IMG/VR virus record: IMGVR_UViG_3300011980_000002
Location: 128,001 to 192,000 of that record
DNA: 64,000 nt
Source: a virus
Strand: one strand, 5' to 3'
The number at the start of each line of letters is the position of its first letter. The first letter of the stretch is position 1. This document shows positions 3,760-16,156 of the stretch, piece by piece. The notes under the pieces are model-generated. The model did no database searches. It saw nothing but the letters and a program-made list of their open reading frames with translations, and was not told the DNA's origin. Position numbers and translations under genes: made by a program.

Positions 3760-5160
3760 ATGCTTAAATATTTAAATATGTATAAGAATAAATACAGAGA
3801 CCAATTAAACAAGAAGCTTATGAAAAAAGAAGCTGATGAACCATTGGTTGAGTATATTAAAGATGCGTGGAAATCATTAGAGATAGCTCCTGCTATTAAG
3901 ATAGTTGATTTTAAGTATTCTGAAATAGAGAATGATATCAACATCAATAAGTATATATTCAAGAGAGAGAAGAATAAGAAAAAGAAAGAGAAATTTGATG
4001 TAAAGTTTATTAATGACAGTAGATGTGGTAGTCTTCGTACTACTATAGAAATAACTTTACCTGTTAAAGACCCAGTATCTGGAGAAATCACTATACATAA
4101 GAAAACCTTGAGTAAAGATATTCTTATTCCTATACAAGATGATAGAGGATATTATACTATAAAGGGTAAAAAGTATTATATGATTTATCAATTGGTAGAG
4201 AAATCTACTTATACAGGTAAACAGACTATTACATTGAAATCATTAATGCCTATTGCTATACAAAGAAATAGTACTGTAGTAAAAGGTTTATCTTTTAAAC
4301 ATGAAATGTTAACAGAAGAATTAGAAAAGGATAGTGGAGTAATGACCAAGAATTCCACTATAGCAGAAACTGTTAATGGTGATACTTATAAATTACCAGT
4401 TTATTACATTTACATGTTTAAGAAAGAAACTCCTATATTACCATTCTTTTTAGCAAGAGGAGCAGAATATGCTTTAGACTTTTTACAATTAAATAGAATT
4501 ATCTCATTTGAAGATGGGGAATCATTTCTTAACAGTGAGAAATCTGATAATGAGATATGGTTTGTTATAAGTAATAACAAATGTTATTTAAGAGTAAAAG
4601 ATAGAGAAATCTTTAATAAGTATCAATATTTACAAGCTATGGTAGGAAGTCTATTAGATATAATGAGTAATAGACTTACTAAAGAGCAAATATATGATAC
4701 TACATTATGGGTTAAGAAGTTAGGTGGTGGAAGTCAATCTAATTCTTATAATAAAGGATTGGATATGTTAACTTTCTTCAGTAGACTATTAGATGAGACT
4801 ACTAAGAAGATATTAAGAATAGATGATATTCATAAGAAAGACATTTATTCTTTAATAAGATGGATGATGATGAATTTCAACGAAATACGATTAAAAGACA
4901 ATATGAATTTATATAATAAGAGAATTCGTTGTAATGAGTATATATCATCATTACTTACAATAGAATTCAGTAGGAGACTTAACAGAATAATATCCATGGG
5001 TAATAAAGCTACTATGGATAATTATAAAGAGATATTTAAGTTCCCAGGAGAAATCTTATTACAAAAGTTACATGTATCGGGAGTACTAAGATTTGATGAT
5101 TGTATTAATGATATGAATTTCTTTAGTAAGTTTAAAGTAACTTTCAAAGGACGAATTGAT
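3760..5160 (+). CDS. phage multisubunit RNA polymerase beta-like subunit, N-terminal polypeptide, exon 1
   Basis: RGYYTIKGKKYYMIYQLVEKS resembles the beta motif G-x-F-I-I-N-G-x-E-R-V-I-V-S-Q-L. The C-terminal GVLRFDDCINDMNFFSKFKVTFKGRID aligns to bacterial beta [28 protein letters not shown]. The listed ORF tail 5161-5241 is read-through into the intron. Confidence 0.75.
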
Positions 5161-6131
5161 AAAATGTGGTCCCGAAATATGGTAACATATTGGAAAAACC
5201 GCTTTAACTGCGGGAAAATCTTAATAAACTTTAATTACTAAACTTATATAGTGATATGATAAGTGGCAATGGGTAACTCCAAAGGTATAGTAAAAAGATT
5301 AAAGTTTAAGACAATCCGCAACAAAGATACTTTTATAGAAAAGGATGGTGCATTTTTATAACTATGGAAAATGAAATTATATGGAAAGATATCCTATTAG
5401 ATAGTAAATATTATTACTTTGAAAAGTATGAGTGTAGTAATACAGGTTTAATAAGATATAAAAAGACTAAAAAACTTGTTAAGATATTTGACTCATACAG
5501 ACACAATCGTAAAAATCAACATTGGAAAAGATGCTTTTTATATTTTGACAAGGACCATTTTTATAAAGTGAGTGTACACAGAATAATAGCATTTACATTT
5601 ATACCAAATCAAGATCCAGATATTTATATTGAAGTTAATCATATAGATGGGAATCCTGAAAATAATAATGTTGATAATTTAGAATGGGTTACAAAATCAC
5701 AAAATATGATTCATGCATATAAAAATAACCTAATTAAATTACCAATAGGTGGTAGGCGTAAAGAGGCTATATTTGACGACGATGATGTACGAGCTGTTGT
5801 GTATCTGATGAAACAAGGTATGAAAGCAAAAGAAATATATTTCAATTTATATGAATTAGGATTATCATATAATCCGATTCTAACTAGAGAAAGGATAAAT
5901 TCTCTAATGAAACATATTCGAAAAGGTACACACTGGAAGCATATCTATAAAAAAGTATAATGTTCAACGACTAGGGAAAGACATATTATAATTAATTATA
6001 ATATGAATCGAGTAGGCTCAATAATAGGGCGAAACGTAGATGAAACAAATCGAAACGGGCGGCTCCTTATATTATTAAATATAAGGATGATGATATAGTC
6101 TAAGAAATAGTGAATTGCACATTCACAAGGG
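5161..6131 (+). mobile_element. group I-type intron carrying an HNH homing endonuclease (boundaries approximate, +/- a few nt)
   Basis: Separates two halves of one conserved beta block. A join at T5160/A6132 keeps the frame, leaves exon 1 ending in U and the intron ending in G. The segment is GC-enriched and hairpin-dense: 5176-5191 AATATG-GTAA-CATATT; 5982-6005 perfect 24-nt palindrome; 6065-6086 CCTTATAT/ATATAAGG; 6110-6126 GTGAAT/ATTCAC. Confidence 0.7.
5364..5960 (+). CDS. intron-encoded HNH homing endonuclease (NUMOD4-like N-terminus + HNH_3-type core)
   Basis: WKDI...YYFEKYECSNTGLIRY (NUMOD4-like) and HRIIAFTFIP...IEVNHIDGNPENNNVDNLEWVTKSQNMIHA (H-N-H core). Confidence 0.85.
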   Translation: MENEIIWKDILLDSKYYYFEKYECSNTGLIRYKKTKKLVKIFDSYRHNRKNQHWKRCFLYFDKDHFYKVSVHRIIAFTFIPNQDPDIYIEVNHIDGNPENNNVDNLEWVTKSQNMIHAYKNNLIKLPIGGRRKEAIFDDDDVRAVVYLMKQGMKAKEIYFNLYELGLSYNPILTRERINSLMKHIRKGTHWKHIYKKV

Positions 6132-6527
6132 AACTCTAATACGAAAAAGATAAATACTAAGTCAAGAGGATTACATCCAAGTTATCTAACTAATTTTGAT
6201 ATATTGGTATGTGGTACTTCTGACCCAGGAACTTCTGCGTTATTATCTCCATGGTGTAATATTAAAGATTTCTATTTTGACTCAAGACCAGAATATGATA
6301 ATTTCATGTATGAGTTTAAAACAGATATAGAAAATTCTTCTAATACCGAATCTATAATTAATATATCATCTGATAATAAAGAGAGGTATTTTGAGGTATT
6401 AAATAAAATGGCTGACATCTTATCATCTTCTAAAGCATATGGACATAGTAATGATGTCTCATATCATATAGAGGAAGGAATAGAGGATGTAGATAGTAAG
6501 ACATTAATAGATAAAGAAGAAGAATAA
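6132..6527 (+). CDS. RNAP beta-like subunit N-terminal polypeptide, exon 2
   Basis: The frame is open from 6114. NSNTKKINTKSRGLHPSYLTNFDILVCGTSDPGTSALLSPW aligns to beta [32 protein letters not shown]. The listed TTG start at 6204 falls inside this conserved block and has no RBS. Confidence 0.7.
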   Translation, partial: NSNTKKINTKSRGLHPSYLTNFDILVCGTSDPGTSALLSPWCNIKDFYFDSRPEYDNFMYEFKTDIENSSNTESIINISSDNKERYFEVLNKMADILSSSKAYGHSNDVSYHIEEGIEDVDSKTLIDKEEE

Positions 6528-10808: not shown

Positions 10809-12791
10809 ATGAAACTAAATTTAGATTCTTATGAAATGACTCATAAAGATATTAAGTTTAATAATAAATTTATTAATAGGGAACTGTCTTGGTTAGATTT
10901 TAATTATAGGGTACTGGATTGTGTAAACAATCCAAGTATCCCTATTAATGAAAGACTTAATTTTTTAGGTATAACAACTTCTAACCTGGACGAGTTCTTA
11001 TCAGTAAGATTTTCTTATGCTTATTATAACAAAGATAAAGAACCTTATAAAGATATTCTAAAGTCTATATATAAATTCTTAAATAACCAAATCAAATCTT
11101 ATAATAATCTCCAATTAGATTTAAAGAAAGAAGATATTTCTATATCTAAAGTATCTAAGCTAGATAAGAAAGAATTAAAGAAATTAAATAATATTTTCAA
11201 TCTTTCTATCTTCCCGTTATTATCTCCGACAAATATCAAATCTAATAATGATATTCCTAATATGAATAATGGGGATTTATGTGTGGGATGTCTATCTGGA
11301 GATAATGATTTAATCATAATCCCTATACCAAAATCTATAAATTACTTAATTAAAGTAAATAAGAAATATCTACTAATAGAAGATGTAATTCTTTCATTAA
11401 TAGATGATATCTTGATTAATAAGAATATAAAACATAAGTGTGTATTTAGATTAATAAAAGATATGTCATTTACTTTAGACCATGATAATTCTAAATTCAT
11501 TATAGATAGAATGAATGATATAATTTTACAAAGACAATCATCCAAACCTATCTTTTGTGAATTTGAATCTTCTATAGATAGTAATCTTAAAGATTTAATC
11601 ATCGATACATTTGATATTAATAAATCCCATATATTTTACAGTAAACAAATCGTAGATTATAGAAGATTTATGAAAAATAAGTTGTTATCGAGTAACTACT
11701 CGTATAAACCATTTAAATCACATAATCTTAAATTTAACGACTCTAAGTATAGCATTTTCTCTATAATAGATGAAAAGGACATTTTGTTACAACATCCGTA
11801 TGATAGTTATGAATCAGTAGTAAGATTTATCAACCATGCTGCGATTGATAAAGATGTTGTAGCAATTAGACAGACTCTATATAGAGTTTCATCTATAGAT
11901 GGTCCAATAATAAATGGATTATGCAAAGCTGCGAAGAATGGTAAACAAGTTACAGTATTAGTAGAAATAAAAGCTAGATTTGATGAGAAGAATAATATAG
12001 AGATTATAGATAAATTAAAAGAATCAGGATGTAATGTATTATTAGGAAATGAGTATCTTAAAACACATTGTAAGATGTGTTTGGTTATAAGTAAAGATAA
12101 TGATACTTATAAGATATATTCTCATGTGGCTACCGGTAATTATAATGAGAAAACCAGTATGTTATATACAGATATATCATATTTTACAAGTAAACAAAAA
12201 ATAGGTAATGACTTATTGCATATCTTCAATATATTATCTGGAGTATCCAAACCTGATAGTAAATTACAAAAGATATCATATTCTCCAGTTACTTTAAGAA
12301 AAACTATAATAGGTAATATTGATAAATGTATTAAGTTAGCGAAGAAAGATAAAAAGTCTGAGATATTTATTAAAGTTAATTCTATATCTGACAAAATTAT
12401 AGTTAAGAAATTATATGAAGCTGCTGATAGTGGAGTTAATATCTATATCATATGTAGAGGAATATGTTCTATTATCCCTAGGAAAAATCTCTATATAAAA
12501 TCTATAGTAGGTAGATTCTTAGAGCATAGTAGAATATATCATTTTAACTATGATGGAAATAAAGAATATTATATTTCATCAGCAGATTTATTAACTAGAA
12601 ATTTAGATAGAAGAATTGAGATATTATTAAATATCTCTGATAATAAGTGTATTAATAAACTACAAGAGATTATTAAAGTAATGAAGAAAGATGAAGTTAA
12701 TAGTTTCATTATGGATAGTAAAGGTAACTTTAGTAGAGGTAAAGGAAATTATAATTGTCATAACGAATTCATTGGGAATAAGATTAAGTAG
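10809..12791 (+). CDS. ppk: polyphosphate kinase 1 (PPK1)
   Basis: The N-terminal signature FINRELSWLDFNYRVLDCVNNPSIPINERLNFLGITTSNLDEFLSVRF closely matches the PPK1 N-domain. Also LQHPYDSY, QTLYRVS, the histidine segment THCKMCLV and C-terminal RFLEHSRIYHF. 660 aa is PPK1-sized. Confidence 0.9.
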   Translation: MKLNLDSYEMTHKDIKFNNKFINRELSWLDFNYRVLDCVNNPSIPINERLNFLGITTSNLDEFLSVRFSYAYYNKDKEPYKDILKSIYKFLNNQIKSYNNLQLDLKKEDISISKVSKLDKKELKKLNNIFNLSIFPLLSPTNIKSNNDIPNMNNGDLCVGCLSGDNDLIIIPIPKSINYLIKVNKKYLLIEDVILSLIDDILINKNIKHKCVFRLIKDMSFTLDHDNSKFIIDRMNDIILQRQSSKPIFCEFESSIDSNLKDLIIDTFDINKSHIFYSKQIVDYRRFMKNKLLSSNYSYKPFKSHNLKFNDSKYSIFSIIDEKDILLQHPYDSYESVVRFINHAAIDKDVVAIRQTLYRVSSIDGPIINGLCKAAKNGKQVTVLVEIKARFDEKNNIEIIDKLKESGCNVLLGNEYLKTHCKMCLVISKDNDTYKIYSHVATGNYNEKTSMLYTDISYFTSKQKIGNDLLHIFNILSGVSKPDSKLQKISYSPVTLRKTIIGNIDKCIKLAKKDKKSEIFIKVNSISDKIIVKKLYEAADSGVNIYIICRGICSIIPRKNLYIKSIVGRFLEHSRIYHFNYDGNKEYYISSADLLTRNLDRRIEILLNISDNKCINKLQEIIKVMKKDEVNSFIMDSKGNFSRGKGNYNCHNEFIGNKIK

Positions 12792-14079: not shown

Positions 14080-15522
14080 ATGAAAAGAATAATTTCAGTA
14101 TATCATACTCATATAGAAATTTATCCATATGAATTAGGAGACTTTAGACGAATAGAAACTTTCTATTCAGAATTTGATATAGTATTTCATAAGTATAATC
14201 CAATAGCTTATTACTATGAGGATAATACTCTATATTTACCAAGAGGTACAAGTTTAACTTATTTGCAAAAGAATTTACCTGAGTCTGAAATAGTAATTAA
14301 GAAAGATACAGATGACAAAGAGTATATTAAGATAAATCCGTTAATTGGATATAAATCAGATATACAAAAAGAAGCAGTAGAATTTCTATCATCCGAGGGT
14401 AGATTTACTAAAGGATTATCATATTCTCAATTTGCATTAAACTTGGATACTGGTGATGGTAAAACTATTGCAATGATATTAGCAATAGCTCAAAGATATA
14501 AAACAAGAGCTATGATAATAATGAACCAATCGGATTTAAAGAAACAGTGGAAACGAGAATTTATTAAAGCTACGGATATAGATGAGAATAGGATATTAGA
14601 TATATCAGGTTCTGATACTATAGTTAAATTAATGGATAGTAATGAAATAGATTATGATATCTTTTTAATCAATCATCAGACTTTATCATCATTTGGTAAA
14701 AGATATGGTTGGAAAGAGTTATCCAATTTCTTTAAAAAGATTAAAATTGGAGTTAAAGTATACGATGAAGCTCATAAGTTCTTTACTAATATATCAATGA
14801 TAGATTTCTTTACTAACACAGAAAAGACTTTTTACTTAACTGCTACATTTAAGCGTAGTGGAGCAAGAGAGTCTACGATGTTTAAGAAAGCATTTAGTAA
14901 TTGCTATAGGTTTGGTGAAGAGACTCTTAATTATGAGAGTAAAAGAAAACATACAGACTATTTCTATATTCAGTTTAATAGTAATTGCCCAGTATTAACA
15001 CAATCAAGATTATATGGAAGATTTTCTGTGTCCCCATTCAATTATATTAAGTATCAATTATTTTGGGATGAAAGAAAAACCTTTTATAATGTCTTAAAGA
15101 AAGTAATTAAGCTAATAGAGAATTTAGAGGGTAAGATATTAATAATATCTCCTACGATAGAATCTACTGAAGTAATTGGTAAATTTATATCTGATAATTT
15201 TGATAAGAGAGTAGTAATTATGAATTCTAAAATTAATGAAGAAGTCGATTTTAGTAATTATGATGTAATAAGTGCTACGATGAAATTATTAGGTACTGCT
15301 ATAGATATAAAAGGATTAAGAGTATTAATTAATACCGAACCATTTAAATCTGAAGTTAACTTAAGACAATTAAAAGGTAGATTGAGGGAATATAATAGTA
15401 CTGATATGACATACATGTTTGATTTAGTAGATGTTTCTATAAGAGATGTATCTAGTATGGGACAAAGTAGACTTAATAATATGAAGAAATATGCTAATGA
15501 AATTAAGATAATTAATGTATAA
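14080..15522 (+). CDS. superfamily 2 DEAD/DEAH-box helicase
   Basis: Motif I LDTGDGKTIAM, motif II VYDEAHKF (DEAH), motif III YLTATFKR, motif VI QLKGRLRE. Confidence 0.8.
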   Translation: MKRIISVYHTHIEIYPYELGDFRRIETFYSEFDIVFHKYNPIAYYYEDNTLYLPRGTSLTYLQKNLPESEIVIKKDTDDKEYIKINPLIGYKSDIQKEAVEFLSSEGRFTKGLSYSQFALNLDTGDGKTIAMILAIAQRYKTRAMIIMNQSDLKKQWKREFIKATDIDENRILDISGSDTIVKLMDSNEIDYDIFLINHQTLSSFGKRYGWKELSNFFKKIKIGVKVYDEAHKFFTNISMIDFFTNTEKTFYLTATFKRSGARESTMFKKAFSNCYRFGEETLNYESKRKHTDYFYIQFNSNCPVLTQSRLYGRFSVSPFNYIKYQLFWDERKTFYNVLKKVIKLIENLEGKILIISPTIESTEVIGKFISDNFDKRVVIMNSKINEEVDFSNYDVISATMKLLGTAIDIKGLRVLINTEPFKSEVNLRQLKGRLREYNSTDMTYMFDLVDVSIRDVSSMGQSRLNNMKKYANEIKIINV

Positions 15523-15574: not shown

Positions 15575-16156
15575 ATGAAGTATAATCATAAACTTTATGT
15601 AATTACTGCTCAGCCAGAAGTAGGTAACCTCGATAAACTCGCAGATAATATTATACAGCACTTCTTAGATCCGAATGCTGAATATACAAAACCGGAAACG
15701 GATTTCAGAGTTCATCAGTATAATAATGAACTCGTTCCACTATTCAATGGTGAAGGTGGTGAAAAGGTTGTTGATGCTATTAAGTATAGTCTCGATAATG
15801 GCGAAGGAAGTGTACTTTATGTTGCTAAGTCTGTAGACCAGTATAAGAAGCTTGTTGAAGTATTTGGTGAAGATAGGGTTGTTAACATAGTAGTTGAAGC
15901 ATCACTTGTTGATAGATTTAAGAGCTATGTAGATACTATTGATTACTCTGATGATGAGAGTTGTCTTAAGTGCCTTAAGCACTTCATAAACAGTAATAGC
16001 AAGTATGCTAAGCATCAGGCTTCCAGAGGATACAAGAATGCTGTTAATGAAGGAAGAGTATTCAAGTATAGATCAGATGAGAAGGCTGCTTCATCTTTAG
16101 TAGACGAGGTGTCTAACTTCATACTTAAAAAGGGTGGATTTTACGAAGCTAAGTAA
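15575..16156 (+). CDS. hypothetical protein (G/C-ending codon class)
   Basis: 193-codon ORF with AGGAGA RBS. Visibly more CTC/AAG/CAG codons than its neighbours. Confidence 0.7.
   Translation: MKYNHKLYVITAQPEVGNLDKLADNIIQHFLDPNAEYTKPETDFRVHQYNNELVPLFNGEGGEKVVDAIKYSLDNGEGSVLYVAKSVDQYKKLVEVFGEDRVVNIVVEASLVDRFKSYVDTIDYSDDESCLKCLKHFINSNSKYAKHQASRGYKNAVNEGRVFKYRSDEKAASSLVDEVSNFILKKGGFYEAK

Follow-up and report, generated by a model that had tools for sequence, protein, structure and literature searches.

Does the locus studied here hold three separate genes, or a single polymerase gene interrupted by an intron that carries a gene of its own? The locus lies in a 64,000-nucleotide (nt) stretch of the IMG/VR virus record IMGVR_UViG_3300011980_000002 (hereafter the window; all coordinates are positions in it, and the intron is numbered on the + strand throughout). 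Three open reading frames (ORFs) follow one another on that strand: a 5′ polymerase ORF at 3760-5241, an endonuclease ORF at 5364-5960 and a 3′ polymerase ORF with a TTG start at 6204-6527. All three stand in the ORF list, and frame 3 is visibly open from 6114, both as stated in a preliminary description of this DNA, which took the intervening insert of roughly 970 nt for a group I intron with an HNH ORF. We come to the same view of the insert, with different borders: the segment 5153-6117 is very probably a mobile group I intron that is still functional or was so until recently, and we infer from its sequence that it splices and homes in vivo. The annotation would accordingly change from three ORFs to one spliced polymerase subunit of 600 amino acids (aa) and one intron-encoded endonuclease.

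The interrupted polymerase gene and its exon junction

The two outer reading frames belong to one protein. The ORF at 3760-5241 and the frame-3 reading from 6114 match the same PHROG, phrog_2943 'polymerase', colinearly, exon 1 covering positions 16-393 and exon 2 positions 463-532 of its 535-position profile, and an in-frame join converts these into a single match over positions 16-532. A tblastn search with the joined product returned one alignment (residues 7-521) to g105 of phage AR9, annotated there as the N-terminal part of the beta subunit of the non-virion RNA polymerase, and the spliced protein matched PDB 7S00 chain c (AR9 non-virion polymerase beta) with E=3.9e-55, the alignment crossing the junction. 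By all three comparisons (tblastn, PDB 7S00 and phrog_2943) the homology to gp105 is full-length and includes the GP.S...RGLHPSY...SDPG block. By homology, then, the interrupted gene is a jumbo-phage homologue of AR9 gp105, predicted to encode the N-terminal half of beta of the non-virion RNA polymerase. The earlier proposal that an RNA polymerase beta-like gene is interrupted in a conserved block agrees with this, in that both ORF pieces are colinear on one PHROG and the spliced product matches AR9 gp105 (7S00). Pfam searches with the unspliced and the spliced polymerase protein gave zero matches, which we attribute to the family being too divergent.

The exact junction could be fixed from an uninterrupted relative. 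A search of a large protein collection identified P0001, a 599-aa protein that is 97% identical to the spliced product and reads ...FKVTFKGPHSQGNSNTKKINTKSRGLHP... without interruption; its locus (L004) is syntenic, intronless and occupied by one continuous gene, with 91% DNA identity to the window. In a blastn comparison of the window with L004, homology is lost after 5150 and picks up again at 6120, with 4 nt on each side between, and the two bases after 5150 are colinear with L004. Joining C5152 to C6118 gives a 600-aa product of which 587/600 residues are identical to P0001, with zero internal gaps. C5152 is then the last base of exon 1 and opens the Pro codon of KGP, so that the spliced reading AAA GGA C|CA CAU UCA CAA GGG encodes KGPHSQG and continues as ...KGPHSQGNSNT..., in keeping with the GPHSxG motif of all close homologues. 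Because only C5152|C6118 both ends the intron in G and restores the conserved Pro, we place the predicted intron at 5153-6117, a length of 965 nt, with G5153 as its first base and G6117 as its last (the terminal omega-G). The spliced RNA is predicted to read ...UUCAAAGGAC|CACAUUCACAAGGG across the junction and to encode the junction-spanning peptide FKGPHSQGNSNTK; the corresponding intronless target sequence in L004 is ACTTTCAAAGGTCCCCATTCGCAAGGGAAC.

Exon 1 thus extends over 3760-5152, as delimited by the phrog_2943 match, by blastn to the intronless L004 and by the junction that P0001 fixes. Exon 2 (6118-6527) begins with CA CAU UCA CAA GGG, which completes the Pro codon and adds HSQG. The 29 codons at 6118-6203, 5′ of the annotated TTG start, are conserved and align with the homologues (HSQGNSNTKKINTKSRGLHPSYLTNFDI), and on reading the sequence we saw no Shine-Dalgarno-like sequence before 6204.

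Fold of the ribozyme and its conservation

Both exons pair with one and the same internal guide, AAUGUG|GUCC (5163-5172). Its GUCC (5169-5172) forms P1 with GGAC at the end of exon 1 (5149-5152), a pairing that is kept by compensatory change (GGGC/GCCC) in the related introns L006 and L007, and its AAUGUG (5163-5168) forms P10 with CACAUU at the start of exon 2 (6118-6123), giving six perfect pairs, with 80% paired across sequences. Downstream of the guide, P2 is a 6-bp hairpin with a GUAA tetraloop (5176-5191), three of whose six pairs change on both sides in relatives. P3 joins CCGCUU (5199-5204) to GGGCGG (6057-6062); 100% of its cells in the alignment pair, and its position 5201/6060 occurs as G-C, G-U, A-U and U-A among the aligned sequences. 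The J3/4 segment UAA (5205-5207) follows directly 3′ of the 5′ strand of P3. P4 is formed by UGCGGG (5209-5214, the 'P' element) and UCCGCA (5315-5320, the 'Q' element), as indicated both by compensatory changes and by the Rfam alignment, in which AAUUGCGGGAA and AAUCCGCAGC fall on P4 of the model. P5 with its long extension occupies 5220-5310; five pairs of its main helix (5225-5236/5297-5308) change on both sides, and the distal extension contains a GNRA-capped hairpin at about 5243-5263 and a second hairpin at 5270-5281, the latter covarying with L009 on reading of the two sequences. P6 (5321-5323 with 5961-5963) and P6a (5327-5330 with 5955-5958) are both supported by compensatory changes; the P6a loop contains the endonuclease ORF, whose stop codon overlaps the 3′ strand of that helix.

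The catalytic part of the core lies 3′ of the ORF. P7 pairs ACGACUA (5967-5973, the 'R' element) with UAGUCU (6096-6101, within the 'S' element GAUAUAGUCU, which ends at 6101), and is invariant and 100% paired in 5/5 sequences. Within it, A5967 is followed by a bulged C5968 and by the paired stretch G5969-A5973, so that G5969-C6100, the predicted guanosine-binding pair, stands next to the bulge, as in the guanosine site of Tetrahymena. J8/7 (6087-6095) precedes the S element. P7.1 is a hairpin made by a 24-nt palindrome (5982-6005), four pairs of which change on both sides, and P7.2 is a GCUC/GGGC hairpin (6016-6030) that covaries with L009 (GUCC/GGAC) and is absent from L007. Because P7.1 and P7.2 lie between P7 and the 3′ strand of P3 (6057-6062), we assign the intron to subgroup IA. 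The P8 hairpin (6065-6086) is seen in the structure alignment, and Rfam aligns it to P8 of its model. All helices of the group I core, P3-P4-P6 and P7-P8, could thus be placed, together with the P3/P7 pseudoknot and the guanosine-site arrangement of P7, and the two further features of the class, a G at the intron end (G6117) and a P10 formed with the guide, are both present.

The preliminary description had failed to find P1, its guide or P7 by eye, although P1 (5149-5152/5169-5172), the guide (5163-5172) and P7 (5967-5973/6096-6101) are all there. It had also named the lack of a group I core as an outcome that would count against an intron; the core, P3-P7-P8 included, was placed and covaries. 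The four hairpins that it listed, 5176-5191 with its GUAA loop, the perfect palindrome at 5982-6005, 6065-6086 and 6110-6126, all exist, the first three being P2, P7.1 and P8. The fourth, GUGAAU/AUUCAC, spans the 3′ splice site determined here: G6117|C6118 falls within the loop, and bases 6121-6123 are claimed by both this hairpin and P10. L005 carries the identical hairpin and L006 and L007 lack it; it may be incidental or a lineage-specific stand-in for a missing P9. A further candidate helix, UCGA/UCGA (6008-6011 with 6050-6053), was dropped, since L006 breaks the pairing.

These placements were assessed on an alignment of five sequences, the window with its ORF removed, L005, L006, L007 and L008. 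On this alignment pairing holds for 90.1% of cells, and both partners change in 23 pairs, compared with 3-5 such pairs in slid controls; none of the shuffles (0/500) came up to the observed value. Compensatory changes occur in P1, P2, P3, P4, P5, P6, P6a, P7.1 and P8, P7 being the invariant helix. A search with the Rfam group I model RF00028 (gathering score 50 bits), the check suggested earlier, gave for the window itself two partial matches, one on each flank of the ORF (17.3 and 12.5 bits). The ORF-less copy in L005, scanned alone, matches the full model at 45.4 bits (E=1.4e-10), and two more distantly related introns in the same gene score above the gathering score, L007 at the same site with 69.9 bits and L008, inserted 7 nt upstream, with 70.2 bits. 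The covarying fold and these same-gene introns support reading the insert as a group I intron with an HNH ORF.

Alternative readings and the C-G pair at the 5′ cleavage site

As we picture the mechanism, the guide (5163-5172) would pair with the end of exon 1 (P1, GGAC/GUCC), and the P7 site (G5969-C6100) would bind a free guanosine, which would attack the C5152-G5153 bond. The same guide would also pair with the start of exon 2 (P10, AAUGUG/CACAUU) as the terminal G6117 occupies the guanosine site, and exon ligation would give an mRNA for the 600-aa subunit. The 198-aa HNH endonuclease presumably nicks or cuts intronless alleles such as that of L004, whose repair would copy the intron in (homing).

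Several observations weigh against a functional group I intron. The pair at the 5′ cleavage site, in a P1 that does exist, is the Watson-Crick pair C5152-G5169, where a virtually universal U.G wobble would be the rule, and a corresponding substitution makes the Tetrahymena ribozyme slower in its first step. We saw no P9 hairpin that convinces, and the 3′ strand of P7 is only 16 nt away from the terminal G. Scanned in full against Rfam at the gathering score, the window returned 0 matches, which we ascribe to the ORF of about 600 nt inside the P6a loop, and even the ORF-less L005 copy falls just below the gathering score of 50 (45.4 bits). Finally, no clear Shine-Dalgarno sequence was seen near the endonuclease ATG (window 5355-5363), the nearest AAGGA being about 18 nt upstream.

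Three other readings of the locus have to be considered in this light. A dead ribozyme, with the gene in practice expressed as two separate polypeptides, the first running to 5241 and the second beginning with the TTG at 6204, would account for the C-G pair in place of the canonical U.G and for the missing or minimal P9, and AR9-like multisubunit polymerases are known to tolerate split beta and beta′ subunits (PMC7598289). We nevertheless regard it as very unlikely, as the conserved codons at 6118-6203 (HSQGNSNTKKINTKSRGLHPSYLTNFDI) are translatable only after splicing, the TTG at 6204 lacks a preceding Shine-Dalgarno-like sequence, P1, P10 and all core helices have been kept by compensatory changes in seven lineages, and the C-G pair is itself conserved, with a covarying neighbour pair. 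The locus might instead hold a free-standing HNH gene between two separate genes, with no intron and with hairpins that are terminators or chance; such genes are common in phages, and the zero Rfam matches at gathering score in the window would fit. Yet the ORF-less L005 retains 350-nt structured flanks, L004 has one continuous gene and the flanks match core elements of RF00028, and we consider this reading ruled out by the L004, L005 and Rfam results.

The third concerns the borders. The preliminary description had the intron at 5161-6131, so that U5160 (or, as an equally legal join, U5157) was the last base of exon 1 and G6131 that of the intron. The frame is preserved in this version, the usual U...G rule is respected, and any in-frame join still matches phrog_2943 and AR9 gp105, but the version is in our view most improbable. 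Joining T5160 to A6132 yields ...KGRIDNSNT..., in which RID replaces PHSQG, whose in-frame codons immediately precede 6132 and which belongs to the GPHSxG found in every close homologue, at the price of a 2-residue gap and 3 mismatches against P0001. The T5157 variant is likewise wrong in replacing the conserved PHSQG, no P1 helix of at least 4 bp was found for U5157 or U5160, and the DNA ceases to be colinear with L004 at 5150/6120 and not at 5160/6132. These borders were thus misplaced by 8 nt at the 5′ end and by 14 nt at the 3′ end: that the intron ends in G stands, with G6117 as the base in question, whereas the exon-terminal U, held to be demanded by group I chemistry, is in fact C5152, paired with G5169. 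The gapless fit to bacterial beta that had favoured them is a coincidence, the phage clade having a few extra residues there (GPHSQG...). Two longer P1 matches, of 7 bp (U5138/G5201) and 5 bp (U5133/G5153), were rejected as they would delete the conserved VTFKG, and the former also clashes with P3.

The intron at 5153-6117, with its C-terminated 5′ exon, is therefore the reading that we carry forward. The C-G pair recurs in 7/7 same-site introns seen (the window, L005, L006, L007, L009, L010 and L095), and the neighbouring P1 pair covaries between A-U and G-C. We ascribe the terminal C to the Pro codon, which forces a C at this position. Published accounts describe the last exon base as 'virtually always' U and critical, 'or exceptionally a C' (PMC2504315, PMC4227781, PMC2241849). 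Since C is an exceptional but known variant (PMC4227781), it is compatible with group I membership, and since it has already been described as an exception, we regard the feature as rare and not as new. Ribozyme research would find in this conserved natural C-G pair a convenient case for testing how strictly the U.G wobble is needed.

A nearby intron provides the counterpart. The L008 intron, inserted 7 nt upstream (YT|SKGPHS; ACU|AGUAAG), is ORF-less, spans L008 3826-4266 and has a normal U.G pair, exon CACU being matched by guide GGUG and P10 comprising 7 bp (CUUUAUU/AGUAAGG). Taken with the C-G pair of the same-site introns, this indicates that close relatives of one ribozyme use U and C as the last exon base.

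The endonuclease, the alleles and known relatives

The middle ORF (5364-5960) encodes a 198-aa protein that Pfam, PHROG and PDB matches identify as an I-HmuI-like HNH endonuclease, probably a homing enzyme of the NUMOD4/HNH_3 type; the preliminary description had recognized the ORF as HNH. HNH_3 (PF13392) is matched with E=1.4e-10 and 41 bits against a cut-off of 24.8, and phrog_59 with E=4.8e-33; the NUMOD4 match (PF07463) is weak, at 13.5 bits against a cut-off of 23.4, and most homologues carry PF07463. The sole PDB match is 1U3E, the SPO1 intron nicking endonuclease I-HmuI (E=2.6e-5), with which the motif VNHIDGNPENNNVDNLEWVTKSQN aligns; the HNH_3 catalytic domain with its His/Asn motif is therefore present. 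In L095, a relative richer in G+C, the same-site intron has a 49%-identical homologue, P0127, in the corresponding P6a loop. Closer homologues are P0121 (94% identical) and, next, P0122 (61%), the latter inside the group I intron of a different gene (L094 2200-3195), whose 485-aa product ends ...SYLPGLGGDLK|. That P0122 resides in the intron of another gene suggests that this endonuclease lineage moves between introns or sites. The suggestion that the insert is GC-enriched applies marginally to its non-coding flanks, with 30.0% and 33.3% G+C against 27.9% for the window, and not to the endonuclease ORF (26.6%).

Relatives preserve three allelic states at this one site, in genomes that are 91-95% identical in DNA: no intron in L004, an intron without ORF in L005, and an intron with ORF in the window. 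The L005 intron is 94-95% identical to that of the window and has a 20-nt loop in place of window 5332-5952. Such a pattern would be expected if homing, loss of the endonuclease and loss of the intron follow one another in a continuing cycle.

Further introns occur at other sites of the same polymerase gene, in P0012, P0013, P0016, P0077, P0080, L008 and L095. These sites include one after ...ILVCGNSD| (before PG), one after ...GIRMRS| in L008 (from about 4330, with a NUMOD4/HNH ORF) and one after ...DILVC| in L095 (from about 3640), so that the conserved block has at least 4 insertion sites within some 40 codons. In AR9-like phages, the fork-loop region of polymerase beta stands out as an intron hot spot. 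Gene callers split the polymerase gene in many metagenomic jumbo-phage contigs: many of the 120 homologues listed cover only about 75-85% of the query, and, where sequences of such partial proteins were read, 15/16 end at intron insertion sites.

The intron also has counterparts outside this gene. The exact R...S core pattern occurs in 82 viral contigs, AR9 included, and the core is 69-78% identical in nucleotide sequence to introns of phage K-like, Brochothrix and PBS1-like phages. The introns of SPO1 (DNA polymerase, I-HmuI), phage K (polA, I-KsaIII) and Twort-like phages have the same P7.1 plus P7.2 architecture and share an I-HmuI-type HNH endonuclease with the window (the 1U3E match), but they interrupt DNA polymerase or ribonucleotide reductase genes, in contrast to the RNA polymerase gene here, and, so far as is known, they follow a U. 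In the T4 td intron, which encodes I-TevI, the ORF is also looped from P6a, the R and S elements (ACGACUA ... GAUAUAGUCU) are very similar, and a GAGUAG...GAAACG motif surrounds P7.2 as it does in the window; it differs in its GIY-YIG endonuclease, its P9/P9.1/P9.2, its U.G splice site and its host gene, thymidylate synthase.

The closest parallel is AR9 itself, which belongs to the same AR9-like lineage and likewise has a multisubunit polymerase beta homologue as the target. The coding sequence of AR9 g189, the N-terminal subunit of virion polymerase beta, is annotated as 6 joined pieces with the HNH endonuclease g190 inside it, and the gene gives four RF00028 matches within 2.4 kb, with an R...S core identical to that of the window intron. 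The two differ in the paralogue invaded, which is the virion one (g189) in AR9 and here the homologue of the non-virion gp105, intronless in AR9. They also differ in the insertion site, here KG|P with a 5′ exon ending in C, and in the endonuclease, of NUMOD4/HNH_3 type here and annotated with an AP2 domain in AR9 g190. In a six-frame translation of AR9 g189 (L093, AR9 146068-155063), we read one exon end as ...STPDSD|. This site appears to correspond to the VCGNSD|PG site of the non-virion paralogue, the two having been matched by motif by eye with the proteins unaligned, and on this correspondence the paralogous genes appear to have been invaded at matching positions. Introns have also been reported in the virion polymerase beta′ gene of AR9/PBS1 (PMC12350094). 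What is new here is the invaded paralogue (non-virion beta), the KG|P site and the C-G splice site; the kind of element is already known in AR9-like phages, and nothing in the finding alters knowledge of the intron class.

A role for such endonucleases has been described in PhiPA3. According to PMC12908238 (citing Birkholz et al. 2024, Science), the group I intron-encoded endonuclease in its virion RNA polymerase gene is directed at a related phage in the same infection, whose intronless allele it targets, and a role as a competitive 'weapon' has been demonstrated. PhiPA3 thus resembles the window in having an intron-encoded endonuclease within a polymerase gene of a jumbo phage; it differs in that it belongs to the nucleus-forming PhiKZ-like Pseudomonas phages, in the subunit concerned and in the weapon role shown for its endonuclease. 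It is an evenly balanced proposition that the lineage described here has permanently fixed the C-G pair owing to the invariant Pro codon, splices enough to supply an essential subunit, and so constitutes a natural group I family without U.G in at least seven diverged phage lineages, whose endonuclease might serve co-infection competition as in PhiPA3.

Elsewhere in the window, an R-like (15888-15898) and an S-like (14678-14690) sequence on the minus strand, with 1 mismatch each and about 1.2 kb apart, were rejected as chance matches, because they lie inside plus-strand ORFs and the mismatches would break P7. An interrupted DNA ligase gene at the window start was likewise dismissed, the frame being open from base 3. 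A 660-aa ORF at 10809-12791 resembles polyphosphate kinase by eye and is a candidate for that function.

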